Origin: Candidatus Eiseniibacteriota bacterium
Lineage (GTDB): Bacteria; Eisenbacteria; RBG-16-71-46
Direction: 5' to 3'
DNA length: 45,949 nt
NCBI GenBank assembly: GCA_023249845.1
Contig: JAHFBW010000003.1
Span: 1 to 45,949 of the forward strand
Under the pieces are notes generated by a model. The model was not told where the DNA came from, did not search any database, and saw only the letters and a program-made list of their open reading frames with translations. A program made the position numbers and the translations under genes. The number at the start of each line of letters is the position of its first letter. Positions within the stretch are counted from its first letter, which is position 1. Positions 2,483-45,898 of this stretch are shown in pieces.

Positions 2483-2511
2483 TTGACCGGCCGAAGCGGA
2501 CCCCCTTACAC
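2483..2511 (+). promoter_or_regulatory. Putative sigma70-type promoter for the rib leader (TTGACC - 17 nt - TTACAC)
   Basis: TTGACC at 2483-2488 and TTACAC at 2506-2511 with a 17-nt spacer, just upstream of the riboswitch P1 helix. The -10 element is weak. Confidence 0.3.
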
Positions 2512-2517
2512 TTCTCC

Positions 2518-2655: not shown

Positions 2656-2740
2656 AGCGGACGCCGAACGGCCGGGACACCGGTCGATCGAGGCGGTGCC
2701 GTGCGATCGTCCGCGCCCCGCGTGTTCCTCCGGGGCTCCC

Positions 2741-3850: not shown

Positions 3851-3852
3851 GC

Positions 3853-6187: not shown

Positions 6188-6621
6188 GCCCGGCCACGGG
6201 CGCGCGCCGGCGCGCGCGCGAGGTGGCGTTCCGCGTGGCGTACCAGGCCGACATCGCGGGGGACGCCTATCCGGTGGCGTGGGGACTGCGCCGCGAACAG
6301 GAGGAGAAGCTCACGCAGGACCAGCTTCGACTCGTCGAGGATCTCGTGGCGGCGCTCGAGACTCGCGGCGGCGAGGTGGACGAGCAGCTTCAGTCAGCAC
6401 TTGCGGAACGCTGGCCGGTGGCGCGTCTCGCGGCCACCGATCGCGCCGTGTTGCGCGTCGCGATCGCCGAGCTCTTGACGCGGCCGGGCTCGCCGGCGCG
6501 GGTGGTGTTGGACGAAGCCATCGAGATCGCGCGCACGTTCGGCAGCGAGGAGTCCGGCGGGTTCGTGAACGGCGTGCTCGACCAGGCGGCACGCCGCCTG
6601 CGGCCGGCGGAGTTCGCATGA
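6184..6621 (+). CDS. nusB: Transcription antitermination factor NusB
   Basis: About 145 aa. RRRAREVAFRVAYQADI.. and ..RVVLDEAIEIARTFGSEESGGFVNGVLD are NusB signatures. It sits in the conserved ribH-nusB position. GTGA overlap. Confidence 0.85.
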   Translation: MSPATGARRRAREVAFRVAYQADIAGDAYPVAWGLRREQEEKLTQDQLRLVEDLVAALETRGGEVDEQLQSALAERWPVARLAATDRAVLRVAIAELLTRPGSPARVVLDEAIEIARTFGSEESGGFVNGVLDQAARRLRPAEFA

Positions 6622-9245: not shown

Positions 9246-10237
9246 GCCCGCGTCGTTCGCCGCGCGCGGTGTCACTCCTCGCCGTCAAGGTGCTGGTGAG
9301 CGTGCTGCTGTTCGCGTGGGCCTTCCGCCGCGTGCGCTGGGACGCGATCGGGCCTGTGCTCGAGCACGCGGCGCCGTTCTGGATCGCGGCCGCCGCGATG
9401 CTGCTGCTCGCCAGTCACCTGCTCGCCTCGTACCAGTGGAGCCGGCTGCTGCGCGCCGCGGGCGTGAAGCTGCCGTTGTGGAAAGTCATCGCCTACTACC
9501 ACGTCGGATTGTTCTTCAACAATTTCCTGCCCGCGAACGTGGGCGGCGATCTCGCGCGCACCCTCGACATCGCGCGCTCGGGCTCGTCGCGGCCGACGGC
9601 GCTCGCCACCGTGCTGCTCGATCGCCTGATTGGCACCGTGGCGCTCGGGGTGGTGGCGGTCGTGAGCACGATCCCCGCGATCGATCATTTCCATCTCGCC
9701 GCCGCCTACGCCGGCGTGGTGACGTTCCTGGCAGCCGCAGTGCTCATGCTGCGCGCCGTACTCGAGCCGCGCGTTCTCGCCGCGCTCGACCGCGTGCTCG
9801 CCGCGATCGGCCTGTCGCGGCTGGCGCCGGCCCTGGACGAGCTGTCGGCGAGGCTCGCCGCGTTCCGCGGCAAGCGCCGGCTGTTGCTCGAACTGCTGTG
9901 CGTGGCGCTCGTCGTGCAGATCATGCGCATCGGCGTACACGTGCTGTTCGCGCGCGCGCTCGGGCTCCACGTGCCCGCGGCCTACTTCTTCCTTTTCGTG
10001 CCGCTGCTGGCGGTGATAGTCTCCCTGCCCATCTCATTGAACGGCATCGGGGTACGCGAAGGCGCCGGCATCCTCCTGTTCGGCCTCGTCGGGCTCGACA
10101 AGAGCAGTGCGTTCGCGCTCCAGTTCGGCACTTACCTCATCGCCGTGGGCGTCAGCCTGCTGGGCGGGCTGGTGTTCCTGGTGCGCATCCCGAGCCGTCG
10201 GGCGAAGGCCCGGAATCCACGGAGGTCCACCGAATGA
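9242..10237 (+). CDS. UPF0104 / lysyl-phosphatidylglycerol-synthase-TM-like membrane protein (flippase-like)
   Basis: Polytopic membrane protein with the family-typical block YHVGLFFNNFLPANVGGDLARTLDIAR. GTG 9242 overlaps the upstream stop (GTGA). Confidence 0.75.
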   Translation: MSPRRSPRAVSLLAVKVLVSVLLFAWAFRRVRWDAIGPVLEHAAPFWIAAAAMLLLASHLLASYQWSRLLRAAGVKLPLWKVIAYYHVGLFFNNFLPANVGGDLARTLDIARSGSSRPTALATVLLDRLIGTVALGVVAVVSTIPAIDHFHLAAAYAGVVTFLAAAVLMLRAVLEPRVLAALDRVLAAIGLSRLAPALDELSARLAAFRGKRRLLLELLCVALVVQIMRIGVHVLFARALGLHVPAAYFFLFVPLLAVIVSLPISLNGIGVREGAGILLFGLVGLDKSSAFALQFGTYLIAVGVSLLGGLVFLVRIPSRRAKARNPRRSTE

Positions 10238-12930
10238 TCCCGACCCAGCGCATGGCCGCGCTGATCTCGGTGCTCGTCTTCATCTTCGCTGCGGCTGTCT
10301 ACCTCCTCACGCTCACGCCCACCGTCCCGTTCTGGGACTCCGGCGAATACATCGCGGTGGCCACCATCCTCGGCGTACCCCACCCCCCGGGCACACCGTT
10401 CTACGTGCTGCTCGGTCGCATCGCGACGCTCGTGCCGTTGGGAAACATCGCGCAGCGCGTGAATGCCCTGTCAGCGATCCCGGCGGCGCTCGCGGTGATG
10501 TTCACCTACCTGTCGGCGCTCCGGCTCATCCGCCTATCACAGGGCTCCGATCGGAAGCCCTGGCACGAGGGCGTCGCGATCGCGGCCGCCGCGACGGGTG
10601 CGCTGCTGCTCGCGTTCTCGGACGCATTCTGGGAGAACTCGGTCGAGGCCGAGGTCTACCAGCTCATGAGCCTGGCGCAGATCCTGGTGTTCTGGCTCGG
10701 ATTGCGATGGTGGGAGGCGCACGACCGGAAGCCGACGGTAGGCCCGCTGCTGCTCGCAACCTACATCATGTGGCTGTGTGTCGGGCTTCACCTGGGCGTC
10801 GGCATCATGGGCGCGCCGCTGATCGTGCTCGTGTTCCTCGTGGACCGGCCGGTGGCGTTCCTGTTCCTGATGCCGTTCCTGACGTTGCTGCGCGTCCCGG
10901 CCGGGCTCGAGCACATGGCCGGGGCGGTCATCCTGCTGTCCGCGATCACGTCGGCGACCTTGGCCTGGCGCAAGAAGCTGAACGGGTGGGTGGCGCTCGC
11001 GGGCGCCGCGTTCTCGTTGCCCGGGCTCGGTGTCGCCAGCTCGGACGCGAACTTCACTCCAGGGCTGGCGTTGCTCACGCTGGCGGCGGTCGTGGGGCCC
11101 ATGGTGTGGCTCGCGCGCCGGCACCGGGAGGGCCGCGTGCTGCTGCTCGCGTTGTTCCTCATGGTCGCGGGCTACTCGACGCACCTCTACCTGCCGATCC
11201 GCGCCGCGCAGCACCCCGCCGTGAACGAGGGCGCGCCTGCGACGTGGGACAAGATGCGCGACCTGCTCGAACGCAAGCAGTACGGCGAGATGAACCCGTT
11301 CACGCGCCGCGCGCCGCTCGGCACCCAGCTCGACAAGGAGTTCTTCCGCTACTTCCGGCGACAGTGGACGCTCGTCGGCGCCGACGACTACCCGCGCCTC
11401 CAGCTGTCGCGCGCCGCGCACTTCGACGCGCAGCCGCCGACGTCCTGGTTCTGGAACCTCGTCCACAACCTGTGGCTCATGTTCCCACCCGGCGCGCTGT
11501 TGCCCTTGGCACTCGGCCTGCTCGGCGGGTGGTGGCAGCTGCAGCGGGAGAAGCGCTCGTTCATGTTCACGTTCTCGTTCCTGGGACTGTCCACGGTCGG
11601 CATGATCGTGTTCCTGAATTTCTCGGCGAGCGAGGTGCGCGATCGCGACTACTTCTTCCAGAGCGGATTCCACGCGTTCGCGCTGTGGATCGGGCTGGGC
11701 ACGGCCAGGCTCGTCCAGTGGGTACGCGATTCGTTCGAAGAAGGCGCCGGGCAGGGCCTCGCGACCGTCACGGCGAGCGGCCTGCTCGCGCTGCAGCCGC
11801 TCATGCTCATGACGAACCTGTGGCACATGCACGACCGAAGCGGCAACTACATCGCGCGCGACTACGCCTACAACATGCTGGCGACACTCAAGCCCAACTC
11901 ATTCATGTTCACGAACGGCGACAACGACACGTTCCCGCTCTGGTACATCCAGGAGGTCGAGGGGTTCCGCAAGGACGTGCGCATCGTGAACCTGAGTCTG
12001 CTCAACACGGACTGGTACATCCGGCAACTCCGCGACGACCAGCCGAAGGTGCCGATCACGCTCGACGACCGCACCATCGACATGCTCGGAGCCGGCGCGT
12101 TCCAGGACGACCAGGGGCGCATCATCTACACGAACGAGTTCATGGTGCACCACATGCTGGAGCAGGCGAAGCGCGACACCGGCTGGGTCAAGCAGCCGTA
12201 CTTTGCCGTCACCGTTCCGAACGACTTCGGTTTCAGCCCGTACTTCCGCCAGGAGGGCATCGTGCAGGAGGTCATGCGCGATAGCCTGCAGGGCGGCTTC
12301 GACGAACCCACCACGCACAAGGCGCTGTACGAGACGTTCCGCTATCGCGGCTTGATCACCGCCAACGGCTCGTGGGACCCGAACGTGTTCAAGGACGAGA
12401 ACGCGCAGAACCTGTCCAAGAACTACGCGTTCGCGCACATGCAGCTGGCGCTCCACTACCGGCGGCAGCGCGACTTCCCGCGCGCCATCGCCGAGATGGA
12501 GCGCGTCGAGCGTATGTTCCCGGAGTGGGTCGAGATCCAGCTCCCGTTGGGGGGCATCTACCTCTCGGCCGGCGATACGCTCAAGGCATGGCAGTTCTAC
12601 GACCGGCTGGCGGAGCGCGTGCCGATGAGCGCGGAGGCGCAGTATTACCGCGGCGCCTCGCTCGCGTATCGCGGCCGCAGTGAAGAGGCGCTCGGCGCGT
12701 TCCGCCGCTCGCGCCAGCTCGACCCGAACTACGCGTACCCGTACTTCGACGAGTTCGCCACGCTGTGGGAGATGGGCCAGCGCGAGGCCGCCGTTCAGGT
12801 GATGCAGCGCTGGGTTCAGCTGCATCCCAACGACCAGGAAGGCAAGGCCCGGCTGCAGGAGGCTCGACTCCGCCTGAGCGGCGGGAACGGCTCCTCGCCA
12901 CTGGGCACGCCACCGCCGAGACCGAACTGA
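10234..12930 (+). CDS. DUF2723 / TMEM260-like GT-C membrane glycosyltransferase with C-terminal TPR domain
   Basis: N-terminus LTLTPTVPFWDSGEYIAVATILGVPHPPGTPFY is the DUF2723 hallmark (acidic D..E in the first outer loop). Many TM helices follow. The C-terminal roughly 200 aa contain TPR-like repeats (..AIAEMERVERMFPEW.., ..EALGAFRRSRQLDPNYAYPY..). ATG 10234 has GGAGG 9 nt upstream and an ATGA overlap. Confidence 0.8.
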   Translation: MIPTQRMAALISVLVFIFAAAVYLLTLTPTVPFWDSGEYIAVATILGVPHPPGTPFYVLLGRIATLVPLGNIAQRVNALSAIPAALAVMFTYLSALRLIRLSQGSDRKPWHEGVAIAAAATGALLLAFSDAFWENSVEAEVYQLMSLAQILVFWLGLRWWEAHDRKPTVGPLLLATYIMWLCVGLHLGVGIMGAPLIVLVFLVDRPVAFLFLMPFLTLLRVPAGLEHMAGAVILLSAITSATLAWRKKLNGWVALAGAAFSLPGLGVASSDANFTPGLALLTLAAVVGPMVWLARRHREGRVLLLALFLMVAGYSTHLYLPIRAAQHPAVNEGAPATWDKMRDLLERKQYGEMNPFTRRAPLGTQLDKEFFRYFRRQWTLVGADDYPRLQLSRAAHFDAQPPTSWFWNLVHNLWLMFPPGALLPLALGLLGGWWQLQREKRSFMFTFSFLGLSTVGMIVFLNFSASEVRDRDYFFQSGFHAFALWIGLGTARLVQWVRDSFEEGAGQGLATVTASGLLALQPLMLMTNLWHMHDRSGNYIARDYAYNMLATLKPNSFMFTNGDNDTFPLWYIQEVEGFRKDVRIVNLSLLNTDWYIRQLRDDQPKVPITLDDRTIDMLGAGAFQDDQGRIIYTNEFMVHHMLEQAKRDTGWVKQPYFAVTVPNDFGFSPYFRQEGIVQEVMRDSLQGGFDEPTTHKALYETFRYRGLITANGSWDPNVFKDENAQNLSKNYAFAHMQLALHYRRQRDFPRAIAEMERVERMFPEWVEIQLPLGGIYLSAGDTLKAWQFYDRLAERVPMSAEAQYYRGASLAYRGRSEEALGAFRRSRQLDPNYAYPYFDEFATLWEMGQREAAVQVMQRWVQLHPNDQEGKARLQEARLRLSGGNGSSPLGTPPPRPN

Positions 12931-34357: not shown

Positions 34358-35631
34358 GGCGCGTGCTCGTGCTCACGCCGTTCTTCCCGCCGCTCGCGGG
34401 GGGAGGGGTTCACCGCGTGCTCTCGTTCGTGCGCCACCTGCCGGCGCGCGGCTGGGCATGTACCGTCGTGTGCGCGGGCGAGCACGACTACTGGGTGCGC
34501 GACGAATCACTGCTCAAGCAGGTGCCACCCGCGACCGAGGTGCTGCGCGTCGCGGGCGGCAGCGCGCTCGCGGCGTGGTTGCGCGTGCGCGGGAAGGCGG
34601 ACTCGGGCCGGCGCTCGGGAGGCGCGTTCGCACCGCTTCGTTCACTCGCGGATTGGTGGCTGCTGCCGGATTCCTACGCCGGCTGGTCGCGACGCGCGCG
34701 CAGTGTGGCAGCGGCGCGCGCATCGCGCGGCGACGTTCACGCCGTGCTCTCGAGCTCGCCGCCCGACAGCGCCCACCTCGCCGCGCTCGACGTGACGCGT
34801 ACCGCCCGGCTGCCGTGGGTGGCGGACTTTCGTGATCCCTGGGTGGGGCTCCACTTCCGCAAGCCCCCGACGCCGTGGCACGCGGCGCGACATGCCGCGA
34901 TGGAGGCGAGCGTCACGGGTAGCGCAGACCTGGTGCTCACTGCGTCCCGGACGCACGAACGTGAGCTTGCATCACGCGCGGTCGGCAAGCCACGACGGCT
35001 GTTGCACCTGCCGAACGGCTTCGAACCCTCCACGAGCACGACCCAGGTCGTGGACCGATCGCGGTTCCGGCTGGCGTTCACGGGCACGCTCTCGCTCATG
35101 GACGACATGGGTACGCTGCTCGATGCGCTCGAGCGCCTGCAAGGCATCGAACCGCGAGCGCGCGACGCGCTGCGCGTGGAGCTGGTGGGGCCGTACGATT
35201 CCGATTGGGAGGCGCGCACGAACGCGCGCGGCCTCGGAAGTCTCGTGCGCTTCAGCGGACCGCGGTCGCACGCGGAGACGCGCGCGCTCCAGCGTTCGGC
35301 GGACGCGCTGCTGCTGTGGAAACCCCGCGGGGACGGCTATCGCACCATGGTGCCCGGCAAACTCTACGAGTATCTGGACAGCGAGCGGCCGATCCTGGCG
35401 CTGCTTCCCGAGCATGATGAGGCCGCGGAGCTGGTGACACAAGCGGGCGGGAGCGTGCTTCCGCCGGGAGACGCCGAAGCGCTGGCGGTCGAGCTCGCCG
35501 CGCGTCTCGCGCGCTGGCGCGAGGCGGGACGACTTCCGGATGCCCGGCCGGCGTGGCTCGGTGAGTACGCGCGCGAGCGTCTCGCCGGCGAGCTCGCACG
35601 CGCGCTCGACTCGCTCGTGGAACGGGCATGA
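34354..35631 (+). CDS. GT-B glycosyltransferase (GT4-like)
   Basis: VLVLTPFFPPLAGGGVHRVLSFVRHL (N-domain). ..FTGTLS.., ..MVPGKLYEYLDSERPILAL.. (C-domain). GTGA overlap. Confidence 0.7.
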   Translation: MRRVLVLTPFFPPLAGGGVHRVLSFVRHLPARGWACTVVCAGEHDYWVRDESLLKQVPPATEVLRVAGGSALAAWLRVRGKADSGRRSGGAFAPLRSLADWWLLPDSYAGWSRRARSVAAARASRGDVHAVLSSSPPDSAHLAALDVTRTARLPWVADFRDPWVGLHFRKPPTPWHAARHAAMEASVTGSADLVLTASRTHERELASRAVGKPRRLLHLPNGFEPSTSTTQVVDRSRFRLAFTGTLSLMDDMGTLLDALERLQGIEPRARDALRVELVGPYDSDWEARTNARGLGSLVRFSGPRSHAETRALQRSADALLLWKPRGDGYRTMVPGKLYEYLDSERPILALLPEHDEAAELVTQAGGSVLPPGDAEALAVELAARLARWREAGRLPDARPAWLGEYARERLAGELARALDSLVERA

Positions 35632-37205
35632 CGCCGTCGGACCCCGGCGCACGCATCGAACGCGTCGCGCTCGTCGTCGCGGTGCTGCTTTGCGCGGCGC
35701 TCGCGTGGCCGCTGCGTCATTACCTCACGGACGACACGTTCATTCATCTACAGTACGCGCGAAACGTCGCCGAGGGTCGCGGTTTCGTTTTCAACCCGGG
35801 TGAGCGCGTCTACGGCAATACGAGCCCGCTCTGGGTTCTGCTCCTGGCCGACGGCATCGCGCTCGGAGGAGACGGGCTCGTTGTTGCGCGCGTATTGGGA
35901 GCGCTCGCTACGCTCGCGTCACTGCTGCTGTGGGTTGCGCTCATGCGGCAGACTCTCTCGAGCCCGTGGCTCCGCGCCGCGTCCACGTTCGCGTGGGCGG
36001 GGCATGCCTGGATGTCGCGCTGGTCGCTCTCGGGCATGGAGACGCCTGTCGCGGTGGCGCTCGTGCTCGCGGGCTTCGTGGCATTCACCTCCGGCGAGCG
36101 CTGGGGGAGCCGACCGCGCGCGGCGAGCCTGTTGTGGTCGCTCGCCGCGCTCGTTCGGCCCGAGTGCGTGCTGCTCGTGCTGCTGTGGGCCTTGGTTCGC
36201 GTCGTGGAGGAAGGCCCGGTTCGGGGTGCCCGGCGCGCGCTCGCCGAGCTGTGGCCGGCGCTGTTCGTCCAGGGCGGCTGGCTCGTGTTCGCAAGTGTGT
36301 ACTTCGGCGGGGCGTGGCCCAACACGCTCGCGGCCAAGGCGGCGGGAGGGGTGGGGCTTGACTACCACGTCGAGCAGTTCCAACGGCAGGCGGGGATCGT
36401 CGCCGCCACGGATGGCGTTCTGGTCGTCGTGTTGCTCATCCTGCTGGCGCTCCGATTCGCGCGCGCGGGTCGGCCGGCATTGCGGCCGCTGCTCCGCGGG
36501 CTGCCGTGGGCCTGGCTCGCTGCCGTGCCCCTCCTCTATATGCTGCGCGGCGTCCCCGTGTTGTCGCGCTACCTGGTGCCACTTCTGCCGATCGTGGACT
36601 GGCTCGCCTGGCGCACGCTCGACCGTGCGCTCGAGATGCGCCCGGCGAGTACACCCGCCACGGCCACCCCGGCCCGACTCGCGCGCTCGGACGCGCGCGT
36701 CGCCGTGATCGGGCTGGTGCTCGCCGGCGTCGTGCTCGCGCAGAACGTGATCGTGTGGCGGCGGGTCGTGCGGCCCCAGGTGGATTCGTTCAGCGCCGGC
36801 CTGGAAGCGAGTCTGATTCCGTGGGGTCGCTGGTTCCACGACCACGCGCCCGCGGACGCGGTGATCGCCGCCCCCGACATCGGCGCACTCGGCTATTTCT
36901 CGCGACGACGCGTCGTGGACTTGGCCGGGCTCGTCACACCGGAGATGGTGCCGGTCTTGCGGCGCTGGCCGCAGGAGGAAGCGGTGTCGCGGTTCGAATT
37001 CGCGCGATTCTCACGTCCCGGCTTCCTCGTGGACCGCGCCGCGACTGCGTGGGACCTGCAGCGAAGAAGCCCGTGGGCCGTCGCGCTCGTTCCGCTCGGT
37101 TCGGCCTCGGTGCCGAATCTGGGGATCGCCCGCCCCGATGCGGCGGTGTACACCTTCTATCGCATCGACTGGGCCGCGTACGACTCGCTCGCCGCCGCTC
37201 GCTGA
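35628..37205 (+). CDS. Polytopic membrane glycosyltransferase, GT-C-like (DD-motif, arabinofuranosyl/mannosyltransferase-like)
   Basis: First-loop motif YLTDDTFIHLQYARNVAEGRGFVFNPGERVYGNTSPLW, about 10 TM helices, then a soluble C-terminal domain. ATGA overlap. It is the last gene before the terminator. The family assignment is tentative. Confidence 0.6.
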   Translation: MTPSDPGARIERVALVVAVLLCAALAWPLRHYLTDDTFIHLQYARNVAEGRGFVFNPGERVYGNTSPLWVLLLADGIALGGDGLVVARVLGALATLASLLLWVALMRQTLSSPWLRAASTFAWAGHAWMSRWSLSGMETPVAVALVLAGFVAFTSGERWGSRPRAASLLWSLAALVRPECVLLVLLWALVRVVEEGPVRGARRALAELWPALFVQGGWLVFASVYFGGAWPNTLAAKAAGGVGLDYHVEQFQRQAGIVAATDGVLVVVLLILLALRFARAGRPALRPLLRGLPWAWLAAVPLLYMLRGVPVLSRYLVPLLPIVDWLAWRTLDRALEMRPASTPATATPARLARSDARVAVIGLVLAGVVLAQNVIVWRRVVRPQVDSFSAGLEASLIPWGRWFHDHAPADAVIAAPDIGALGYFSRRRVVDLAGLVTPEMVPVLRRWPQEEAVSRFEFARFSRPGFLVDRAATAWDLQRRSPWAVALVPLGSASVPNLGIARPDAAVYTFYRIDWAAYDSLAAAR

Positions 37206-37270
37206 GCGGCGATGGGCCGACTGCACGCCCGTGCAGTCAGGAAACGTCGGACTCGCCGCTTTTTTCTTTT
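37206..37270 (+). terminator. Rho-independent terminator ending the glycan gene array
   Basis: GCGGCGA (37206-37212) pairs with TCGCCGC (37253-37259). Inner pairing options are CCGAC/GTCGG, or the perfect hairpin GACTGCAC-gccc-GTGCAGTC. TTTTTTCTTTT follows at 37260-37270. Confidence 0.6.
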
Positions 37271-37298
37271 GACTCAGGCGAAGCGCAGAGCCTATCTT
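37269..37298 (+). promoter_or_regulatory. Putative sigma70-type dcw/mraZ promoter (TTGACT - 18 nt - TATCTT)
   Basis: TTGACT at 37269-37274 and TATCTT at 37293-37298, in the only AT-richer patch of the region. The -35 element overlaps the terminator T-tract. Confidence 0.5.
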
Positions 37299-37306
37299 GC
37301 GCGGCT

Positions 37307-37366
37307 GTGGGGAGCGGTGGGGAGCCGTGGTAAGTCTTGGGGAGCAGTGGTTCCCCGTGGAGCGCT
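37307..37366 (+). promoter_or_regulatory. Six direct (G/T)TGG boxes at exact 10-bp phasing: candidate MraZ operator
   Basis: The 10-mers starting at 37307, 37317, 37327, 37337, 37347 and 37357 read GTGGGGAGCG, GTGGGGAGCC, GTGGTAAGTC, TTGGGGAGCA, GTGGTTCCCC and GTGGAGCGCT. They lie between the predicted -10 element and the mraZ ATG. E. coli MraZ binds GTGGG-type direct repeats with the same 10-bp periodicity. Confidence 0.65.
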
Positions 37367-37372
37367 CACGCG

Positions 37373-37822
37373 ATGGCGACCTTTCTCGGCACCGAGACGT
37401 ATTCGATCGACGACAAGAATCGCGTCGTGGTGCCGGCCGCGATGCGGCACGTCGGGGGGACGAAGAAGCCGCTCGAGAAGTTCGTGATGATGCGAGGTCT
37501 CGACGGCTGCGTGTGGCTATACGCGCAAGAGGATTGGAAGCGCCTCGAGGAATTGCTCCAGCGACTGTCGACGGGGCCCAAGGATCATCGGGCGTTCGCG
37601 CGGACCGCGCTGGTTGGAGCAAGCAAGGTGACGGTGGATAAGCAAGGACGCATCACGATCTCCCCGTCACTCATGGGCCATGCAGGTCTCGGCAAGGAAG
37701 CCGTGCTGCATGGCCAAGTCGGACGCATCGAGCTCTGGGCGCCGGCGCGGTTCCAGAGCGGTCTGGTCACCGAGGCGGCGGACTACGATGCCCTGGCGGA
37801 GAAGGTGCTGGGAGGCGAGTGA
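37373..37822 (+). CDS. mraZ: Transcriptional regulator MraZ
   Basis: (M)ATFLGTETYSIDDKNRVVVPAAMR.. plus a second half ..KVTVDKQGRITISPSLMGHAGL.. give the duplicated SpoVT-AbrB/MraZ repeat. ATG 37373 was chosen over the ORF-track start 37337, which lies inside the repeat boxes. Confidence 0.9.
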   Translation: MATFLGTETYSIDDKNRVVVPAAMRHVGGTKKPLEKFVMMRGLDGCVWLYAQEDWKRLEELLQRLSTGPKDHRAFARTALVGASKVTVDKQGRITISPSLMGHAGLGKEAVLHGQVGRIELWAPARFQSGLVTEAADYDALAEKVLGGE

Positions 37823-38280
37823 TGGTGACGCGGGCCGGATCGAGCGAGGATCGCACGTCCGTGACGATGAACCTCCAGTTCACGCGCGGCCGCCACGGCG
37901 CTGCCGCGCGGCTCGAGGTGCACGAGCGGCCCGCCGGCCGGGTCGGGCTGCTCGCGCTGCGTGGCTGGGTGGACCTGTCGGCCGCGCGCGGCATCGAGCG
38001 GGCGCTGGACGACCTCGCGGCGCGCGGCGTGACACGTCTGGTCGTGGACTGCTCGCAGCTCCTGCACATCGACTATCGGCTGGTGCCGCGGCTCGCGAAC
38101 GCGCTCGTCCGGTTCGAGGCGCATGCCGGCGCAGTGGGACTATGCGGCCTGTCCCGATACCTCCGCGATCTGTTCCGGCTCACGGGCTCCGACGCCAAGC
38201 TCGCCTGCTGGCCTTCGGCGACGGAGCTGCTGGAGGCGGCTCCCGGTGACCCCGGACGAGAACGTGAGCGCGCTTCATGA
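37819..38280 (+). CDS. STAS-domain protein (anti-sigma-antagonist fold), inserted between mraZ and rsmH
   Basis: ..GLLALRGWVDLSAARGIERALDDLAARGVTRLVVDCSQLLHIDYRLVPRLANALVRFEAHAGAVGLCGLSRYLRDLFRLTGSDAKL aligns by eye with SpoIIAA/STAS topology. Third-codon-position GC looks high, like the flanking genes. The GTGATG start region overlaps the mraZ stop. An alternative start is ATG 37867 (MNLQF..). Confidence 0.65.
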   Translation: MMVTRAGSSEDRTSVTMNLQFTRGRHGAAARLEVHERPAGRVGLLALRGWVDLSAARGIERALDDLAARGVTRLVVDCSQLLHIDYRLVPRLANALVRFEAHAGAVGLCGLSRYLRDLFRLTGSDAKLACWPSATELLEAAPGDPGRERERAS

Positions 38281-39184
38281 GCCGGTTCTCGTGCGCGAGA
38301 CGCTTGCTTTCTTGGAACCGCGGCCGGGCCTGTTCCTCGACGCCACGCTCGGTGACGCCGGTCACGCCGAAGCCCTGTTGCTGGCCGACCCCGGCGTGCG
38401 TCTGCTCGGGAGCGATCGCGACCCGGCATCGCTCGCGTTTGCTCGCCAGCGCCTGGTGCGTTTCGGAGGTCGGGTGACGCTCGTGCACGGGACGTTTCGC
38501 GACCTGCCCGCGAGCCACGCGGCCAGCGGAGGCGAACGTCTCGCGGGAGCGCTCTTCGACTACGGCCTCTCGTCGCGCCAGATCAGCGATCCCGCGCGTG
38601 GCATGAGCTACCGGCAGGAGGGACCGCTCGACCTGCGCATGGACACGAGCCGGGGCGAGACGCTCGCCGAGAAACTTCTGCACGCGGACGAGGACGAACT
38701 GACGAGCGTGCTGCGCACGCACGGTGACGTGCGTCCGGCCCGCGCGATGGCGCGTGCGATCCTGGTCGCGACTCGCGCCGGCGAACTCACGAGCACGCGG
38801 CAGCTTGCGGGTCTCGCGAGCCGAGTGCTTCACGACACGCGGCCGGGCGCGGTCGCTCCCGTGTTCCAGGCGCTGCGTGTCTGGGTGAACGACGAGATGG
38901 CGGACCTGGAAGCGGGCCTGGCGTGGCTCAGAGACGTCATGGCCGACGACGGCGTGGTGGTGACGTTGTCCTACCACTCGGGCGAGGACCGGCGCGTGAA
39001 GCAGGCGCTGCGCGGCGTCCCGCGCGCGGGCTCGCGCCGCCTTCCCCCCGCGGCCGACGAGCCCGCGCCGGGCCCCTGGCATGAACTCACCAAGCGTGTG
39101 GTCACCCCGTCGGAGCAGGAACAGGAGTCGAACCCGCGCGCGCGGAGCGCGCGCCTCAGGGCCTTCCGGAGGAATCCGAGATGA
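38246..39184 (+). CDS. rsmH: 16S rRNA (cytosine1402-N4)-methyltransferase RsmH (MraW)
   Basis: HEPVLVRETLAFL..GLFLDATLGDAGHAE.., ..DLRMD.. and ..SYHSGEDRRVK are RsmH blocks. The start is GTG 38246 or GTG 38264, and both overlap the end of the STAS ORF. Confidence 0.85.
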   Translation: MTPDENVSALHEPVLVRETLAFLEPRPGLFLDATLGDAGHAEALLLADPGVRLLGSDRDPASLAFARQRLVRFGGRVTLVHGTFRDLPASHAASGGERLAGALFDYGLSSRQISDPARGMSYRQEGPLDLRMDTSRGETLAEKLLHADEDELTSVLRTHGDVRPARAMARAILVATRAGELTSTRQLAGLASRVLHDTRPGAVAPVFQALRVWVNDEMADLEAGLAWLRDVMADDGVVVTLSYHSGEDRRVKQALRGVPRAGSRRLPPAADEPAPGPWHELTKRVVTPSEQEQESNPRARSARLRAFRRNPR

Positions 39185-39618
39185 GACGTGCAGGGAAGCG
39201 AACCGCCCCCTCATGGCGCATGACCGACGCCCGCGCGCTCCAGCCGGGTTGGTTGTTGGGCGCCCTCCTGCTGCTCGCCATCCTGCTGCTCGAAGTCTGG
39301 CAGCAGTCCGCCGTCGCCAGCCTGTCCCTGCGCGCCGGCCGTGCGAACGAACAGCTGCAGCGCGCCAGTAACGACCTCGAGTGGACCCGCGCACAACTCG
39401 ACCAGAACACGCGGCGCTCCGAGGTGGGCTCGCTCGCGTTCAGCGCCGGCGTGCGTCCCGCGGACGCCACGCAGGTCGTGTGGCTGCCCGCGGATTACCT
39501 CGAGGAGGACGGGGCCGCGGCGGACCCGAAGGGCTCGCCCGCGCTGCTCGCCGCGGCGGGTCGCGCGCTCCAGTCTCTCGTGCCGGAAGCGAAGGCACGG
39601 GGCCGCCACGTGAACTGA
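39181..39618 (+). CDS. ftsL: FtsL-like cell-division protein (single TM + coiled coil)
   Basis: It sits in the ftsL position. One TM helix (WLLGALLLLAILLLEVW) is followed by a helical segment (..ANEQLQRASNDLEWTRAQLDQ..). There is no sequence-specific motif. ATGA overlap with rsmH. Confidence 0.6.
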   Translation: MRRAGKRTAPSWRMTDARALQPGWLLGALLLLAILLLEVWQQSAVASLSLRAGRANEQLQRASNDLEWTRAQLDQNTRRSEVGSLAFSAGVRPADATQVVWLPADYLEEDGAAADPKGSPALLAAAGRALQSLVPEAKARGRHVN

Positions 39619-39722
39619 CCGAATCGCCGATCCGGCGAGCGAGCTGTCGTACCGGCCGCGTCACAGCACCGCGCAAGTGGGGCCGGCGGTCTGCGTGAAC
39701 CGCCGTTCCATGGAGGGAACTG

Positions 39723-41888
39723 TTGGCCCACAAGGAGATGCGCAAGAGTCGGGTGCTGCTGGCTGCGGCCGGTCTTTTTCTGGGGCTCACGTGCCTGTGG
39801 GTGCGCGTCGCGGTGCTGCAGACCGCGATGCACGGCCACTATGCCGCACGCGCCCGCGAGAACCAGCAACACCACCGGAAGATCCTGCCGCGACGGGGCG
39901 TCCTCACGGACCGGCAGGGCAAGGTGCTCGCGCACGACCTCGGCGTGAGCCAGGTCGCCGTGTACCCGCCGCAGCTCACGGACCCCATGGCCGTGGCGCG
40001 CGTCCTCGCGCCGGTGACGCACGACTCGCCCGTCAAACTCGCGAAGCGGTTGCGCTCGCTCAAGACCTACACGTGGATCGCGCGCGACCTGCCGCCCGAG
40101 GAGGGAGAGCGCATCCGCGAGGCGAAGCTCGAAGGCGTCGTGGTGGAAGACGAGTCGCGCCGCTTCTATCGCCTGGGTGAGGCCGCAGCCGAGATCCTGG
40201 GCCGCACGAATCGCGACAATGTCGGCGTGGACGGCCTCGAGTACCAGTTCGAGAACCTGCTCGGCGGCCGCACCGGCTGGGTGACGATGGTGCCGACGGG
40301 TTCGTCGCAGATGAGCCTGCTGCTGCCCGGCGCCGAGGGCCGTCCCGCACGCGACGGCGCCTCGGTCGAACTCACGCTCGACGGCGATCTCCAGAGCATC
40401 GTCGAGCACCACCTCGCCGAGGCTGTGGACTCGCTCCACGCGCAGCGCGGGTTCGCGGTGTTCCTGGACCCGTGGACAGGAGAGATCCTCGCCTCCGCAT
40501 GCGTGCCGCACCTTCCGCCGGGCAAGTCGCGCAACTGGACGTTCACCGACCAGTACGAACCGGGCTCGACGTTCAAGGTCGTGGTGAGCGGCGCGGTGCT
40601 CGAGGAACACCTCGCTCGCCCGAGCGACCGGTTCGAGGCGTCCGCGAGCGGCGAGGCCGAGCTCGTGCCGGGCTGTGTCATCCACGATACGCACGAGGCC
40701 GCCTCGTTCACGTTCTTCGGTGCCATGCAGATGTCGAGCAACATCGTCATGGGCCGGCTGGGGTTGAAGCTCGGCGCCGAACGGCTGCACCGCTACGCCT
40801 CGGCGCTGGGCTTCGGCGGCATGACGGGCGTGGAGTTCCCGGGCGAGACCGCGGGCCGGCTGCGCCCGGTCTCGGCGTGGCAGTCGCGCTCCACGCCGAC
40901 GATCGCGATCGGCCACGAGATCACGGTGACGCCGCTGCAGCTGGCGCTCGCGTACGCCGCGGTGGCGAACGGCGGCGTGCTCATGCAGCCCATGCTCGTG
41001 CGCTCGATCAAGGACGCGGATGGACGCGAACTGCGGCGCGGCACGCCCCAGCCATCGCACCGCGTGTTCAGCGCCGGCACGAGCGGCACGCTTCTCGACA
41101 TGCTGTGCGCCGTGGTGGACAGCGGCACCGCCACGTCGGCGCGCCTGCCCGGCCTGCGCATCGCGGGGAAGACGGGGACGGCTCAGAAGTACGACGCGAA
41201 CGTCGGCACCTACGGCCGCGGGATGTACGTGGCGTCGTTTGCGGGCATCGCGCCCGCCGACCGGCCGCGACTCGTGGGCGTCGTGGTGATTGACGAGCCG
41301 CGCGGGGCGCGCTACTACGGCGGCCAGGTCGCGGCACCGGTGTTTCGCGAGGTGCTCCTGGACCTGCAGCGTATGGCATGGCCCGGGTTCGACCCCGTGA
41401 ACGCCTCGGTGGCGATGCGTCCTCCGAGCGTGCCCGCCGTGACTGCGCCCGACCTTCGGCTCCTGCCGCCGCGGCACGCCGAGCGCCGCCTCGCCGACTA
41501 CGGCCTGCACGCTCGCTTCGAGGGTACGGGTCCGCGCGTCCTGTCGCAGGTGCCCGCGGCCGGACAGCCGGTCGAACGCGGTTCGATCGTGCTCGCATAC
41601 CTCGCCGCGCCACAGGACTCGGTCAGCCGCGCGCTTCCCGATCTCGTCGGACTGCCGGTGCGCGAAGCGATGCGCCGGCTGACGCAGCGCGCCGTGCCCG
41701 TGCGCATCTCCGGGAGCGGATTCGTGACGCGGCAGTCGCCGGCGCCCGGCACGCGGCTCCCGCTCGCGGGCCCCTGCCGGCTCTGGTGCTCGCCCTTGGG
41801 TCCCGACGACGCGGGCTCCGCGTCACGACCGTCCACGCCCGCCTCGCCCGCGAGCGGCCCGCTCGCCGTACGGCTGCGCCGCCCGTGA
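39723..41888 (+). CDS. ftsI: Peptidoglycan D,D-transpeptidase FtsI (class B PBP) with two C-terminal PASTA domains
   Basis: N-terminal TM helix. Catalytic motifs STFK, SSN and KTGTAQK. The C-terminus carries two PASTA-like units (see finding). TTG 39723 has GGAGG 6 nt upstream. An alternative start is ATG 39738. Confidence 0.9.
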   Translation: MAHKEMRKSRVLLAAAGLFLGLTCLWVRVAVLQTAMHGHYAARARENQQHHRKILPRRGVLTDRQGKVLAHDLGVSQVAVYPPQLTDPMAVARVLAPVTHDSPVKLAKRLRSLKTYTWIARDLPPEEGERIREAKLEGVVVEDESRRFYRLGEAAAEILGRTNRDNVGVDGLEYQFENLLGGRTGWVTMVPTGSSQMSLLLPGAEGRPARDGASVELTLDGDLQSIVEHHLAEAVDSLHAQRGFAVFLDPWTGEILASACVPHLPPGKSRNWTFTDQYEPGSTFKVVVSGAVLEEHLARPSDRFEASASGEAELVPGCVIHDTHEAASFTFFGAMQMSSNIVMGRLGLKLGAERLHRYASALGFGGMTGVEFPGETAGRLRPVSAWQSRSTPTIAIGHEITVTPLQLALAYAAVANGGVLMQPMLVRSIKDADGRELRRGTPQPSHRVFSAGTSGTLLDMLCAVVDSGTATSARLPGLRIAGKTGTAQKYDANVGTYGRGMYVASFAGIAPADRPRLVGVVVIDEPRGARYYGGQVAAPVFREVLLDLQRMAWPGFDPVNASVAMRPPSVPAVTAPDLRLLPPRHAERRLADYGLHARFEGTGPRVLSQVPAAGQPVERGSIVLAYLAAPQDSVSRALPDLVGLPVREAMRRLTQRAVPVRISGSGFVTRQSPAPGTRLPLAGPCRLWCSPLGPDDAGSASRPSTPASPASGPLAVRLRRP

Positions 41889-43384
41889 TGCTGCACCAGC
41901 TCCTCGCCGGCGTGGAAACGCTCGCCGTGCACGGCACCACCGACCTCGACATTCGCCGTCTCGTGCTGGACTCGCGGCAGGTGCAGCCGGGTGACGCTTT
42001 CTTCGCGCTCCCCGGTGTCCGCGCGGACGGCGTCCGGTTCGCGGCAAGCGCGGCGGCCGCGGGCGCCGCCGCGGTGTTCGGACCGCGCGGCCTTGCGGCC
42101 GCGGGGTGTACGCTCGTCGAGGTCGCGGAGCCCCGGCTGGCGCTCGCCCAGGCCGCCGGCACGTTCCACGGTCATCCGTCCCGCGCGCTGCGCGTCGTGG
42201 GCGTGACGGGGACGAACGGCAAGACCACGACGACCTGGCTGCTCGAGGCGATCGCCGCCGCCGCGGGCTGGAGCACCGGCGTCATCGGCACCACGGGCGT
42301 CCGCATCGGCGGAACGGAGCGGCCCTCGGCGTTCACAACGCCCGAGGCGCCCGAGCTCCAGTCGCTGCTCGCGGACATGGGCGCCAAGGGTGTCCAGTGC
42401 GTCGCGTTCGAAGCGAGCAGCCACGCGCTCGCGCAGCGCCGCACGTGGGGCACGGCGTGCGACGCCTGTGTGTTCACGAATCTGACGCAGGACCACCTCG
42501 ACTACCACGGCACGATGGAAGCCTACCTCGACGCGAAGCTCATGCTGTTCGACGGGCGAAACGGCGGCCGCGAGAAGCCGTGCACCGCGGTGGTGAACGC
42601 CGACGACCGGCATGCGGCCACGGTGGTCTCCGCCGCCTCGAAGGGCGGCATGCGCGTCACGCGCTTCGGATCGGTCGCGAACGTGGCCGGTCAGGACGGC
42701 GTGTCCCTGGTCGAGGTCTCGGCACGTCCGAGCGGCCTCGACCTGCGCCTACGAGAGACCGGAGATGGCGCCGAGCACGAGCTGTTACTGCCGCTGCTCG
42801 GGCGGTTCAACGCGTGGAACGCGGCGGGCGCCTTCACCGCCGCGCGCGCGCTCGGCGTGCCCGCGCGCACCTGTGTGCGCGGGCTCGAGGCGGCACCGGG
42901 CGTGCCGGGACGCCTCGAACGCGTGCCAGCCGGACAGGACTTCGGCGTGGCGGTGGACTACGCGCACACGCCCGACGCGCTCGAGCGTTCGCTCGCCGCC
43001 TGCCGCGAGCACGCGAGCGGACGCGTGCTGGTCGTGTTCGGATGTGGCGGCGACCGTGACCGCGGCAAGCGGCCGCTCATGGGTGCGGTCGCCGCAACGG
43101 GCGCCGATCGCGCCTGGGTCACGAACGACAACCCGCGGTCGGAAGATCCGGCCGCGATCGCCGCCGAGATCGTGGCGGGTGACCCCACCGGCCGGCTCAT
43201 CGTGGTCCTGGATCGCCGCGCCGCCATGGCCGCCGCGTTCGCCGAGGCGCGGGCGGGCGACTGGGTGCTGGTCGCGGGCAAGGGTCACGAGACCACGCAG
43301 ACCATCGGGACCGAAGTGAAGCCCTTCGACGACCGCGCCGTCGCACGCGAGCTCTTGGCCCTTGCACGGGGGGGACGCACGTGA
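41885..43384 (+). CDS. murE: UDP-N-acetylmuramoyl-L-alanyl-D-glutamate--2,6-diaminopimelate ligase
   Basis: GVTGTNGKTTT P-loop. DNPR motif (WVTNDNPRSEDP) indicating meso-DAP specificity. GKGHE near the C-terminus. GTG 41885 / ATG 41888 overlap the ftsI stop. Confidence 0.9.
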   Translation: MMLHQLLAGVETLAVHGTTDLDIRRLVLDSRQVQPGDAFFALPGVRADGVRFAASAAAAGAAAVFGPRGLAAAGCTLVEVAEPRLALAQAAGTFHGHPSRALRVVGVTGTNGKTTTTWLLEAIAAAAGWSTGVIGTTGVRIGGTERPSAFTTPEAPELQSLLADMGAKGVQCVAFEASSHALAQRRTWGTACDACVFTNLTQDHLDYHGTMEAYLDAKLMLFDGRNGGREKPCTAVVNADDRHAATVVSAASKGGMRVTRFGSVANVAGQDGVSLVEVSARPSGLDLRLRETGDGAEHELLLPLLGRFNAWNAAGAFTAARALGVPARTCVRGLEAAPGVPGRLERVPAGQDFGVAVDYAHTPDALERSLAACREHASGRVLVVFGCGGDRDRGKRPLMGAVAATGADRAWVTNDNPRSEDPAAIAAEIVAGDPTGRLIVVLDRRAAMAAAFAEARAGDWVLVAGKGHETTQTIGTEVKPFDDRAVARELLALARGGRT

Positions 43385-44793
43385 ACGGCCCGCGTCCAGC
43401 GCACGTGACGCTCGTCCAGCTCGCACAATGGGCGGCCGGCGATCTGGTCGTGAACGACGTGCCCGCCGACGCCACCGCGCGCGAAGCGCTGCTTCGCGAC
43501 GGCGTCTCCGGGGCCACGCTCGACACGCGCGCGATCGAGCCCGGCATGCTGTTCGTGCCTCTCCCCGGGAGCCGCACTGACGGCCACGCGTACATGGACG
43601 AGGCGTTCGCGCGCGGCGCGGGCGCCGCGCTGTGCGCGCGCGCGGTGCACGCGCGCATCGCCGAGCTGCCGCTGGGTCCGCTCGTGCTGGTCGAGGACGT
43701 CACCGCGGCGCTCCAGCGCCTTGCCGGGCGATTGCGCGAGCTGTGGCCAGGCTGGATGGTGGCGGTGACGGGCAGCGCCGGCAAGACCACGACCAAGGAG
43801 CTGGTCGCCTCCGCTCTCGCCACGGCGGGTCCCGTGCTCCGCACCGAGGGGAATCTCAACAACCATTGGGGCGTGCCGCTCACGCTCATGGGGCTGGCGC
43901 CCGAACATCACGCGGCGGTGATCGAGATGGGCATGAATCACGCCGGCGAGATCGCGGCGCTGGCGGCGATCGCCCGGCCCGACGCCTGTGTCATCACCAA
44001 CGCCGGCTCCGCCCACCTCGAGAACCTGGGATCGCTCGAAGGCATCGCGCGCGAGAAAGCGTCGCTCGCATGGGCGCTCCACCGCGGCGCGCCCGCGTTC
44101 GTGGGCGCGGACTCGCCGCGGCTCCTCGAAGCCGTGAAGGGCGCACCAGCCGAGGTCATCACGTACGGCCTCGCCGCGCGTGCTGCGGTGCGCCCCGAGC
44201 GATGGGAGGACCTGGGCGAGGCCGGCTCGCGCCTGCATGTCGCGGGATTTCCACCGCTCCATCTCCAGTTGATCGGGCAACATCAGGTCTGCAACGCGCT
44301 CGCGGCGCTCGCCGTGGCGCGCTATCGCAAGCTCGATCCCGTCGCGGTGGTGGACGCGCTCGCCGCGAAGAGGCCGCTCAAGGGCCGCATGCAAGTGCAG
44401 CACGTCGCTGGCGCGACGCTGCTCGTGGACCACTACAACGCGAACCCCGACTCGATGCACGCGGCGCTCGCGACACTCGAGCGCTGGCCGCGCGCGAAAC
44501 GCCGCATCGCGGTGCTCGGCGACATGAAGGAACTGGGTCACACCGCGGCTGATCTGCATCGCGAGGTGGGCGGCGCCGTGCGCGGCGCCGAGCTGTGGGT
44601 GGTGGGTGTGCACGCCTCGGACTACGAGGCCGGCGCGCGTGCCGCCGGAGTACATGTGCTCACGTTTCCCGACAAGCCCGCGCTCGCCGCCGCGCTTCGC
44701 GAGCAGTTGGCACCGGGGGTGGTCGTGCTGCTCAAGGCTTCACGCGGGGCAGCGCTCGAGGACATCCTGGCCGGGCTCCCGGTCGAAGCCTGA
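43381..44793 (+). CDS. murF: UDP-N-acetylmuramoyl-tripeptide--D-alanyl-D-alanine ligase
   Basis: DTRAIEPGMLFVPLPGSRTDGH, P-loop VTGSAGKTTTKE, NNHWGVPLTL, ..DHYNANPDSM.. and ..VLLKASRG. GTGA overlap with murE. Confidence 0.9.
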   Translation: MNGPRPAHVTLVQLAQWAAGDLVVNDVPADATAREALLRDGVSGATLDTRAIEPGMLFVPLPGSRTDGHAYMDEAFARGAGAALCARAVHARIAELPLGPLVLVEDVTAALQRLAGRLRELWPGWMVAVTGSAGKTTTKELVASALATAGPVLRTEGNLNNHWGVPLTLMGLAPEHHAAVIEMGMNHAGEIAALAAIARPDACVITNAGSAHLENLGSLEGIAREKASLAWALHRGAPAFVGADSPRLLEAVKGAPAEVITYGLAARAAVRPERWEDLGEAGSRLHVAGFPPLHLQLIGQHQVCNALAALAVARYRKLDPVAVVDALAAKRPLKGRMQVQHVAGATLLVDHYNANPDSMHAALATLERWPRAKRRIAVLGDMKELGHTAADLHREVGGAVRGAELWVVGVHASDYEAGARAAGVHVLTFPDKPALAAALREQLAPGVVVLLKASRGAALEDILAGLPVEA

Positions 44794-44806
44794 GGAGATC
44801 TCCCGC

Positions 44807-45898
44807 GTGTTCTACGAGTGGCTCTACCCACTACACACGGTTCACGGGCTGTCGTTCCTTAACCTGTTCAAGTACATCACGGTGCGCGCGGCGCTCGCGG
44901 CCGTGCTCGCGCTTGGCATCAGCTTCCTGCTCGGGCCGCCCATGATCGAGTGGCTGCGCCGGGTGAAGCTCGGACAGAAGGTGCGCGAGGAGGGGCCGCA
45001 GTCGCACTACGTGAAGGCCGGCACCCCCACGATGGGCGGCCTGCTCATGCTGGCGGCGATCGGCATCCCGGTCCTGTTGTGCGGCAACTTTCACAATCGC
45101 CAGGTGTGGCTGGCACTCGGCACGACGCTGTGGCTGGGCGGCATCGGGTTGCTGGACGACTGGCTGCGCGTCGTGAAGAAGCTGCCGAAGGGACTGCTCG
45201 GCCGCTACAAGCTCGCGGGGCAGTTCGTCATCGGTGCGATCGTCGGGATATGCGTGCTGTCCTGGCCCGAGCCCGGCAGCTCGCCCACGCTCACGCACGT
45301 GCCATTCTTGAAATCGTTCTACTTCGACCTCGGCTGGCTGTTCGTGCCGTTCGTGATCGTCGTCATCACGGGCGCGTCGAACGCGGTGAACTTGACCGAC
45401 GGCCTGGACGGGCTGGCCTCGGGGCTCGTGGCGATCGCGGCCATCGCGTTCGCCGGCATGTGCTACCTGACGGGCCACGCCAAATTCAGCGCCTACCTGA
45501 ACACCGGCTACTTGCCGTTCGCGGGTGAACTCACCGTGTTCTGCGCCGCGGTGCTGGGCGCCGCGCTGGGTTTCCTCTGGTACAACTGCCACCCCGCCGA
45601 CGTCTTCATGGGCGACACGGGCTCACTGTCGCTGGGCGGCGCGCTCGGCGTGGTCGCGGTGCTCATCAAGCGCGAGTTCTGGCTCGTGCTGGTGGGCGGC
45701 GTGTTCGTGGCCGAGGCGCTGTCCGTGATGCTGCAGGTGACGTCGTTCAAGCTCACCGGCAAGCGCGTCCTTCGCATGTCACCACTCCATCACCACTTCG
45801 AACTCATCGGCTGGCCCGAATCTCGGGTCGTCCTGCGCTTCTACATCGCCGGGGCGCTCTTGGCACTCCTGTCGCTGTCCACGTTCAAGCTCCAGTGA
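44807..45898 (+). CDS. mraY: Phospho-N-acetylmuramoyl-pentapeptide transferase
   Basis: ..FKYITVRA.., ..HYVKAGTPTMGG.., ..GLLDDWLRV.., ..NAVNLTDGLDGLA.., ..VFMGDTGSLSLGG.. and ..PLHHHFEL are canonical MraY blocks. GTG 44807 has GAGGAG 9 nt upstream. Confidence 0.95.
   Translation: MFYEWLYPLHTVHGLSFLNLFKYITVRAALAAVLALGISFLLGPPMIEWLRRVKLGQKVREEGPQSHYVKAGTPTMGGLLMLAAIGIPVLLCGNFHNRQVWLALGTTLWLGGIGLLDDWLRVVKKLPKGLLGRYKLAGQFVIGAIVGICVLSWPEPGSSPTLTHVPFLKSFYFDLGWLFVPFVIVVITGASNAVNLTDGLDGLASGLVAIAAIAFAGMCYLTGHAKFSAYLNTGYLPFAGELTVFCAAVLGAALGFLWYNCHPADVFMGDTGSLSLGGALGVVAVLIKREFWLVLVGGVFVAEALSVMLQVTSFKLTGKRVLRMSPLHHHFELIGWPESRVVLRFYIAGALLALLSLSTFKLQ

Follow-up and report, generated by a model that had tools for sequence, protein, structure and literature searches.

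The gene order mraZ-rsmH-ftsL-ftsI is among the most conserved in bacteria, and the joint role of MraZ and RsmH is poorly understood. In the textbook form of this cluster of genes for division and the cell wall (dcw cluster), mraZ comes first behind an operator of GTGG boxes and is directly followed by rsmH, which precedes ftsL, ftsI, murE, murF and mraY. Lineage-specific accessory genes may be stably held inside dcw clusters, such as dca in Neisseria and spoVD/spoVE in Firmicutes. Here we analyzed a stretch of 45,949 nucleotides (nt) from a Candidatus Eiseniibacteriota bacterium (NCBI GenBank assembly GCA_023249845.1, contig JAHFBW010000003.1, positions 1 to 45,949; hereafter the window), whose dcw cluster starts in the same way, with mraZ first behind a GTGG-box array and rsmH ahead of ftsL, ftsI, murE, murF and mraY. 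Unlike the textbook arrangement, in which mraZ and rsmH are adjacent, a third gene coding for a STAS protein lies between the two and overlaps both, with translational coupling predicted. In contrast to dca and spoVD/spoVE, which are located further downstream and do not encode STAS proteins, this gene belongs to the regulatory head of the cluster and is present in several phyla. The window features given with coordinates below are on the forward strand.

With regard to its product, the closest described proteins are the anti-sigma factor antagonists SpoIIAA and RsbV, and MlaB, a subunit of the MlaFEDB lipid transporter. The STAS protein resembles SpoIIAA and RsbV in fold, size and best structural matches, and its motifs are found at the same places, namely the strand 3/helix 2 loop and the strand 4/helix 3 region. 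It differs from them in having Tyr for the phospho-serine and His for the preceding Phe/Tyr, in scoring below the cut-off of the antagonist model TIGR00377, and in being encoded inside a dcw operon without an adjacent kinase, phosphatase or sigma gene; moreover, an additional strand with a GRHGA[AS]AR turn is found at the N-terminus of the Eisenbacteria type. MlaB is also a single-domain STAS protein and is among the structural matches (6xgz_B and 7ch7_E), but this match is weaker than that to SpoIIAA/RsbV, the sequence signature is another one, and no mla or ABC-transporter genes are nearby. MlaB provides a precedent for a single-domain STAS accessory subunit that is encoded in the operon of its partner and works without a partner-switching kinase.

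The G+C content of the window is 70%, and long open reading frames (ORFs) are present in all six frames around the STAS gene, so that the existence of this ORF alone proves no gene. Searching 5.8 billion proteins at E<=1e-3 revealed 301 homologues, of which the best 120 shared 59-99% identity, and those with an NCBI organism label belonged to Candidatus Eisenbacteria. In pairwise comparisons with the overlapping ends trimmed, the median ratio of nonsynonymous to synonymous substitutions (dN/dS) was 0.21 for the STAS gene, as compared with 0.27 for mraZ, 0.28 for rsmH and 0.51 for ftsL. On the basis of these homologues, a dN/dS of about 0.2 and the invariant synteny described below, the ORF is a real gene, whose product is a STAS protein of one domain and about 152 amino acids (aa). 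A preliminary description of this DNA, made from its letters alone, had proposed an ORF that fills the mraZ-rsmH junction, overlaps both genes, shares the codon usage of its neighbors and encodes a STAS protein, and our results bear this out. The ORF is present at 37819..38280, overlapping the mraZ stop by 1-4 nt and extending 17 nt into rsmH from its GTG start; its G+C content at third codon positions (GC3) is 0.85, within the range of the neighboring genes (0.80-0.91).

The position of the gene is also conserved. The order mraZ-STAS-rsmH was observed in six species-level relatives among GTDB genomes (80-89% identity), in members at 59-68% identity, and again in distant members at 32-40% identity. 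A metagenome scan with a narrower alignment (A3) added 80 loci. In all 97 of the 97 family loci with enough flanking sequence (37-89% identity), mraZ was directly upstream and rsmH directly downstream, and no other context was found. The gap between mraZ and the STAS gene was -1 nt in 29 loci (TGATG); a further 27 loci had -4 nt, and most of the others a few nt.

An exhaustive search of 1.84 billion representatives with a hidden Markov model (HMM) revealed approximately 55 clusters (at 50% identity) that had the N-terminal extension of this family. Below them ranked a second, sister group, whose members are shorter (about 125-130 aa) and carry the H-x-D-Y-R signature as well. All eight contexts examined for this group or for intermediates (L018, L019, L100, L101, L102, L103, L104 and L105) were again mraZ-STAS-rsmH. 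They included a locus from GCA_031552145.1 (L102), one from the cultured myxobacterium Archangium lipolyticum (Myxococcota; L103), one whose proteins match Latescibacteria bacterium DG_63 (L104), and one in which mraZ is present as two tandem copies (of 160 and 146 aa; 5839-6947 of L105) ahead of the STAS gene and rsmH. The upstream neighborhoods of the sister-group loci varied, consisting of glycosyltransferases, PilZ/TPR proteins or rpsB-tsf, which indicates that these loci represent different lineages whose sole constant is the mraZ-STAS-rsmH core. In the Myxococcota-like L100, a PilZ gene adjoins mraZ. In Candidatus Eisenbacteria the STAS gene is thus a constant part of the dcw operon, and a shorter sister subfamily occupies the same place in Myxococcota, in a genome labelled as Latescibacteria and in further uncultured lineages. 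Conservation at this position in related genomes had been an expectation of the preliminary description; the arrangement is a multi-phylum feature, wider than was supposed there, which strengthens its case.

Scanning of genome contigs with the single protein yielded only close relatives and two generic STAS genes of Actinomycetota (L007 and L008), which were outside the dcw cluster. A candidate STAS-RsmH fusion (P0412, 214 aa) was rejected as a Rosetta-stone fusion, since its tail degenerates into nonsense and it is a frameshift or assembly artefact; P0125, in which a STAS fragment is joined to a kinase fragment, was discarded as a chimera. Two large proteins, P0165 and P0167 (830 and 836 aa), contained three canonical STAS domains (Y-I/V-S-S-G-G-W-G) with long acidic linkers and are unrelated to the dcw family. 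The literature searched, which included one paper on dcw evolution and whose coverage was incomplete, yielded no report of any STAS gene placed between mraZ and rsmH.

Assignment to the STAS family was based on both sequence and structure. Two generic Pfam models passed their gathering thresholds, STAS_2 (PF13466; 40.3 bits versus 29.2) and STAS (PF01740; 37.2 bits versus 22.6), and these were the only Pfam matches. None of the NCBIfam models reached its cut-off: the anti-sigma antagonist model TIGR00377 gave 31.5 bits (cut-off 53.45) and TIGR02886 gave 16.1 (cut-off 114.75). An AlphaFold2 model built from 18 sequences had a mean predicted local distance difference test score (pLDDT) of 80.7 and a predicted template modelling score of 0.76, and showed a STAS fold with the element order E-E-E-H-E-H-E-H-H. 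The top Foldseek matches of this model were SpoIIAA (1til_B), RsbV (6m36), RsfB (8ih8), other anti-sigma antagonists and MlaB (6xgz); all 25 matches in the PDB at E<=1e-3 were STAS proteins or STAS-domain chains, with a probability of 1.00. Family members are named 'STAS domain-containing protein' or 'anti-anti-sigma factor' in databases, and one was called 'MlaB component' by JGI. The proteins are mildly basic, with a median isoelectric point (pI) of 8.4 and a wide range, which offered no hint as to function.

The most conserved residues of the protein are located in the HxDYR loop and in a CGLSxYLRDLFR motif. The latter, encoded by codons C109-G-L-S-R-Y-L-R-D-L-F-R120 (38143..38178), occupies the strand 4/helix 3 region; nine of its 12 residues (C109 G L S, Y114 L and D117 L F R120) were invariant in alignment A1, while R113 and R116 vary. 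In SpoIIAA and RsbV, this motif and the loop are part of the surface that meets the partner (structures such as 1th8 and 6m36). A third motif, found in the Eisenbacteria-type subfamily only, is encoded by codons G24-R-H-G-A-A-A-R31 (37888..37911) and forms the turn between the extra N-terminal strand and strand 1, flanked in the model by strands 14-23 and 26-37. In A1, G24, G27, A28 and R31 were invariant, and R25, H26 and A30 nearly so. These two motifs also served as search patterns, GR[HP]GA[AS]AR and GLSx[YH]LRDL[FM].

The HxDYR loop itself (codons H83-I-D-Y86-R87; 38065..38079) connects strand 3 and helix 2, which is the site of the phospho-serine in SpoIIAA. In a profile alignment to Geobacillus SpoIIAA (1th8_B and 1tid_B), H-I-D-Y-R-L-V-P was opposite F-M-D-S-S-G-L-G, placing Tyr86 on the phospho-serine; the first Ser could be identified as the phospho-acceptor because 1tid_B is a Ser-to-Ala mutant chain. 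The aromatic residue three positions before the acceptor, Phe or Tyr in canonical STAS proteins, is His83 here, and in the SpoIIAA alignment the N-terminus of helix 2 (D-S-S/T-G) had no Ser/Thr open to phosphorylation. The pattern D-[FLC]-S-x-V-x-H-x-D-Y-R was common to both subfamilies, its His and Tyr being at least 90% conserved. Within a collection of 416 STAS proteins, which is biased by searches made around this family, 324 had His83 and Tyr86 together and 330 had Tyr at the acceptor position, the canonical combination being Y/F and S. Some family members had Phe, Val, His or Gly at the acceptor position. The replacement of the phospho-acceptor, and the alignment from which it had first been proposed, are therefore correct. 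The further proposal that the protein is non-phosphorylatable holds for serine kinases of the SpoIIAB/RsbW type but not in general, as the conserved Tyr could in principle be the target of a tyrosine kinase.

The boundaries of the three genes were examined at both junctions. mraZ (37373..37822) encodes 149 aa from ATG 37373 and matched Pfam MraZ (7.6e-27) and TIGR00242 (106.6 bits; cut-off 98.35). Its stop codon TGA is at 37820-37822, where the STAS gene (37819/37822..38280) may begin either at GTG 37819 (153 aa, 4-nt overlap) or at ATG 37822 (152 aa, 1-nt overlap; GTGATG). The ATG appears to be the likelier start, because most orthologues begin with 'MV', 29 loci have the TGATG junction, and a GGAGG lies 6 nt 5' of this codon. 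The STAS stop codon TGA is at 38278-38280. rsmH (38264..39184) encodes the 16S rRNA m4C1402 methyltransferase, with matches to Pfam Methyltransf_5 (6.9e-71) and TIGR00006 (217.8 bits; cut-off 154.3). Its longest ORF opens at ATG 38123, and its alignments to both the Pfam and the TIGR model start near 38264. The homology alignments and the gene calls of relatives thus agree on GTG 38264, 17 nt before the end of the STAS stop, as the start of a 306-aa protein. An rsmH ORF from ATG 38123 (38123-38263 extra) would share 158 nt with the STAS gene, and automatic annotation that favors the longest reading frame could place the start of rsmH wrongly or drop the STAS gene altogether.

The overlap between the 3' end of the STAS gene and the start of rsmH (38264..38280) is the 17-nt sequence GTGAGCGCGCTTCATGA, and an overlap of the same length was found in 85 of the 97 loci. 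The STAS stop TGA is created by the rsmH codons CAT-GAG (His-Glu; 38276-38280), as is also the case in the 85 related loci. A stop at this place requires that His be encoded by CAT and not CAC, which makes this codon notable in a genome with a GC3 of about 85%; the retention of the rare CAT against a strong GC3 bias seems to be a sign of dual-coding constraint. With the STAS start overlapping the mraZ stop and the STAS stop 17 nt inside rsmH, the three genes would be arranged for translational coupling in series.

Upstream of mraZ, a sigma-70-like promoter (TTGACT-18-TATCTT; 37269..37298), identified by consensus match only, was the only promoter-like site in 37100..39800, where shuffled sequence averaged 0.1. 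It is followed by six GTGG/TTGG boxes with 6-nt spacers and a 10-nt period (37306..37359), an array resembling an MraZ operator. This array fits the published pattern of repeated GTG(G/T) boxes with 6-nt spacers (PMC12957436). Chains of at least three boxes preceded mraZ in 37 of the 69 related loci, including the Archangium and Latescibacteria-like loci, as compared with 9 of 1380 shuffles. Given the promoter-like site and the operator array, the STAS gene looks to be part of a unit autoregulated by MraZ. Terminator-like matches inside the operon were weak. The co-expression with MraZ that had been proposed for this gene is in line with its layout: the reading frames overlap on both sides, extending the arrangement to RsmH, and the sole promoter-like site of 37100..39800 is upstream of mraZ, with none found inside the operon.

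Some transcript fragments of the locus were also found. The window derives from a groundwater metagenome; among three metatranscriptomes from the same study, two contained nothing from the locus and the third only fragments of mraZ and of rsmH/ftsL, including a 220-nt contig on mraZ with 2 mismatches. A freshwater-sediment metatranscriptome contained a 260-nt contig inside the STAS ORF from a relative approximately 87% identical, the differences being at third codon positions.

To look for a partner-switching system, we scanned 20 window proteins outside the operon head, which comprised riboflavin genes, nusB, a large glycosylation cluster and dcw genes. Genes for an anti-sigma kinase, a PP2C phosphatase or a sigma factor were not among them. 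Kinase, phosphatase and sigma genes were likewise absent from the examined flanks of the Eisenbacteria-type relatives, and no anti-sigma kinase, PP2C or sigma gene adjoined the STAS gene in the related loci examined, including L102-L105. Neither the scanned window proteins nor the related loci contained mla or ABC-transporter genes.

Judged from sequence, the chance seems about even that the STAS protein is an adaptor without a serine-phosphorylation switch, made together with its neighbors and binding a conserved partner. Such a protein would not act as an on/off partner-switching antagonist under serine phosphorylation, and we have not classified it as a SpoIIAA/RsbV-type antagonist because it falls below the TIGR00377 cut-off and does not have the acceptor serine. 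The adaptor would be produced in step with its neighbors, its amount being set by MraZ-controlled transcription, and its canonical STAS contact face, formed by the HxDYR loop and the GLSxYLRDLFR motif, would bind a partner conserved across phyla. The likeliest partner would be RsmH or MraZ, both encoded in this operon head, as mraZ and rsmH are the sole genes that always accompany the STAS gene. Binding might then tune the MraZ/RsmH module and hence the expression of division and cell-wall genes. In E. coli, Eraso et al. reportedly observed in 2014 that the toxicity of MraZ overproduction is relieved by RsmH, and this would imply an unexplained antagonism within the module that a third component could mediate.

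A more far-reaching proposal, which we put forward only tentatively, is that H-x-D-Y-R STAS proteins may be an unrecognised third component of the MraZ-RsmH module in Eisenbacteria, Latescibacteria-like bacteria, Myxococcota and other lineages, binding MraZ or RsmH directly and setting the strength of division and cell-wall expression. If the proposal is true, it would open a way to understand what the mraZ-rsmH pair does, which has long been unclear.

Several other explanations of the gene have to be weighed against the adaptor. The protein might be a conventional anti-sigma antagonist whose RsbW/SpoIIAB-like partner is encoded elsewhere; with no serine to be phosphorylated, it would always be active, and sigma release would follow dcw expression. 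This would agree with its nearest structures, SpoIIAA, RsbV and RsfB in complex with anti-sigma kinases, with the weak NCBIfam match to the anti-sigma antagonist superfamily, and with the location of the conserved residues on the canonical contact motifs. However, the TIGR00377 score is below the cut-off, the phospho-serine is replaced, no anti-sigma kinase, PP2C or sigma gene was found among the scanned window proteins or next to the gene in the loci examined, and mraZ and rsmH are the only invariant neighbors over several phyla, so that we regard a conventional antagonist as unlikely, though the main rival of the adaptor. Some STAS domains bind nucleotides or acyl carrier protein loaded with acyl groups, and the protein could similarly be a sensor that holds a nucleotide, lipid or anion at its His/Tyr/Arg loop and signals the state of metabolism or of the envelope to the division operon. 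The conserved His-x-Asp-Tyr-Arg cluster is at the N-terminus of helix 2, where phospho-SpoIIAA holds its phosphate, and the mildly basic character of the protein might also suit such a ligand; but the signature fits a protein interface equally, and a sensor role appears quite unlikely to us.

The chance that partner-switching logic has been kept with another chemistry is slim. In that case Tyr86 would be phosphorylated by a bacterial tyrosine kinase (BY-kinase) or a eukaryote-like kinase; the Tyr stands exactly at the phospho-acceptor position with at least 90% conservation, and Myxococcota are rich in eukaryote-like kinases. On the other hand, no linked kinase gene was present in the loci examined, and the members with Phe, Val, His or Gly suggest that a structural or contact role fits this position better than that of an obligatory acceptor. 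The overlaps conserved on both sides, including that of 17 nt with rsmH, would also be expected if the ORF were mainly a translational coupling device passing ribosomes from mraZ to a weak GTG of rsmH, and its protein had little function. This seems barely plausible, as dN/dS is about 0.2 over the whole length with the overlaps excluded, the STAS fold is confidently predicted, and the motifs are invariant across phyla, features which a spacer ORF would not keep. Finally, a spurious ORF arising from high G+C in an enlarged intergenic spacer, as the long overlapping ORFs in all frames of the window might suggest, is refuted by the Pfam matches above threshold, the 301 homologues, purifying selection, the GC3 value and the conserved synteny, and its probability is practically nil.

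Some observations weigh against the adaptor and its partners in the operon head. The search for partner genes covered window proteins and locus flanks, and a distant RsbW-like partner could exist. In L100, an ECF-type sigma gene and two small unknown genes (1393-2931, reverse strand) are located approximately 4 kb upstream of mraZ on the opposite strand; the Archangium locus L103 does not have this sigma gene. A mirror-tree analysis of 37 loci gave a correlation of 0.72 between STAS and RsmH (partial 0.62) and of 0.46 between STAS and MraZ (partial 0.02), and this signal was set aside as partner evidence because shared phylogeny explains it equally well. The transcript evidence is weak, as it consists of fragmentary assembled metatranscriptome contigs, which may contain DNA.

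An extra gene locked between mraZ and rsmH in several phyla, under selection as strong as that on its neighbors, points to an unstudied regulatory partner. What is new here is the signature and the deeply conserved genomic association, the fold being already known; a STAS subfamily that has traded serine phosphorylation for a conserved His/Tyr signature widens the known scope of this fold. Since Archangium, and so probably other myxobacteria, carry the gene, the idea is open to ordinary genetics.

The remainder of the dcw cluster follows rsmH. A small membrane protein gene resembling ftsL (39181..39618; 145 aa) had no Pfam match here; its position and size are kept in relatives, and the equivalent gene matched DivIC/FtsL in L100 and L103. 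It is followed by ftsI (39723..41888), coding for a PBP3-type transpeptidase whose orthologues have PBP_dimer, Transpeptidase and PASTA domains and share 55-82% identity across loci, and by murE, murF and mraY (41885..45898; starts approximate), which were recognized by two occurrences of Pfam Mur_ligase_M/C and by Glycos_transf_4 and MraY_sig1. A PASTA domain was found at the C-terminus of FtsI in L009, L011, L017, L100, L103 and L104; C-terminal PASTA domains in penicillin-binding proteins are better known from Gram-positives.

On the other side of the operon, a 525-aa protein without a Pfam match (35628-37205) adjoins mraZ upstream and is kept there in nearly all Eisenbacteria-type loci (42-80% identity). 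Alongside it are a Reg_prop protein, an Acetyltransf_6 (FemAB-like) protein and GT4 glycosyltransferases, and this Reg_prop/Acetyltransf_6/glycosyltransferase set is also present 5' of mraZ in the Latescibacteria-like locus L104. Further upstream, a long glycosylation cluster contains an epimerase, GT2 and GT4 enzymes, an asparagine synthase, a YfhO-like protein and a 1274-aa protein (9106-12930) with a TMEM260-like protein O-mannosyltransferase domain and C-terminal TPR repeats. Near the beginning of the window, a flavin mononucleotide (FMN) riboswitch (Rfam RF00050, 112 bits; 2522-2652) precedes a riboflavin operon (about 2696-6621), which includes ribBA (4314-5738) and ribH (5735-6187), followed by nusB (6184-6621).

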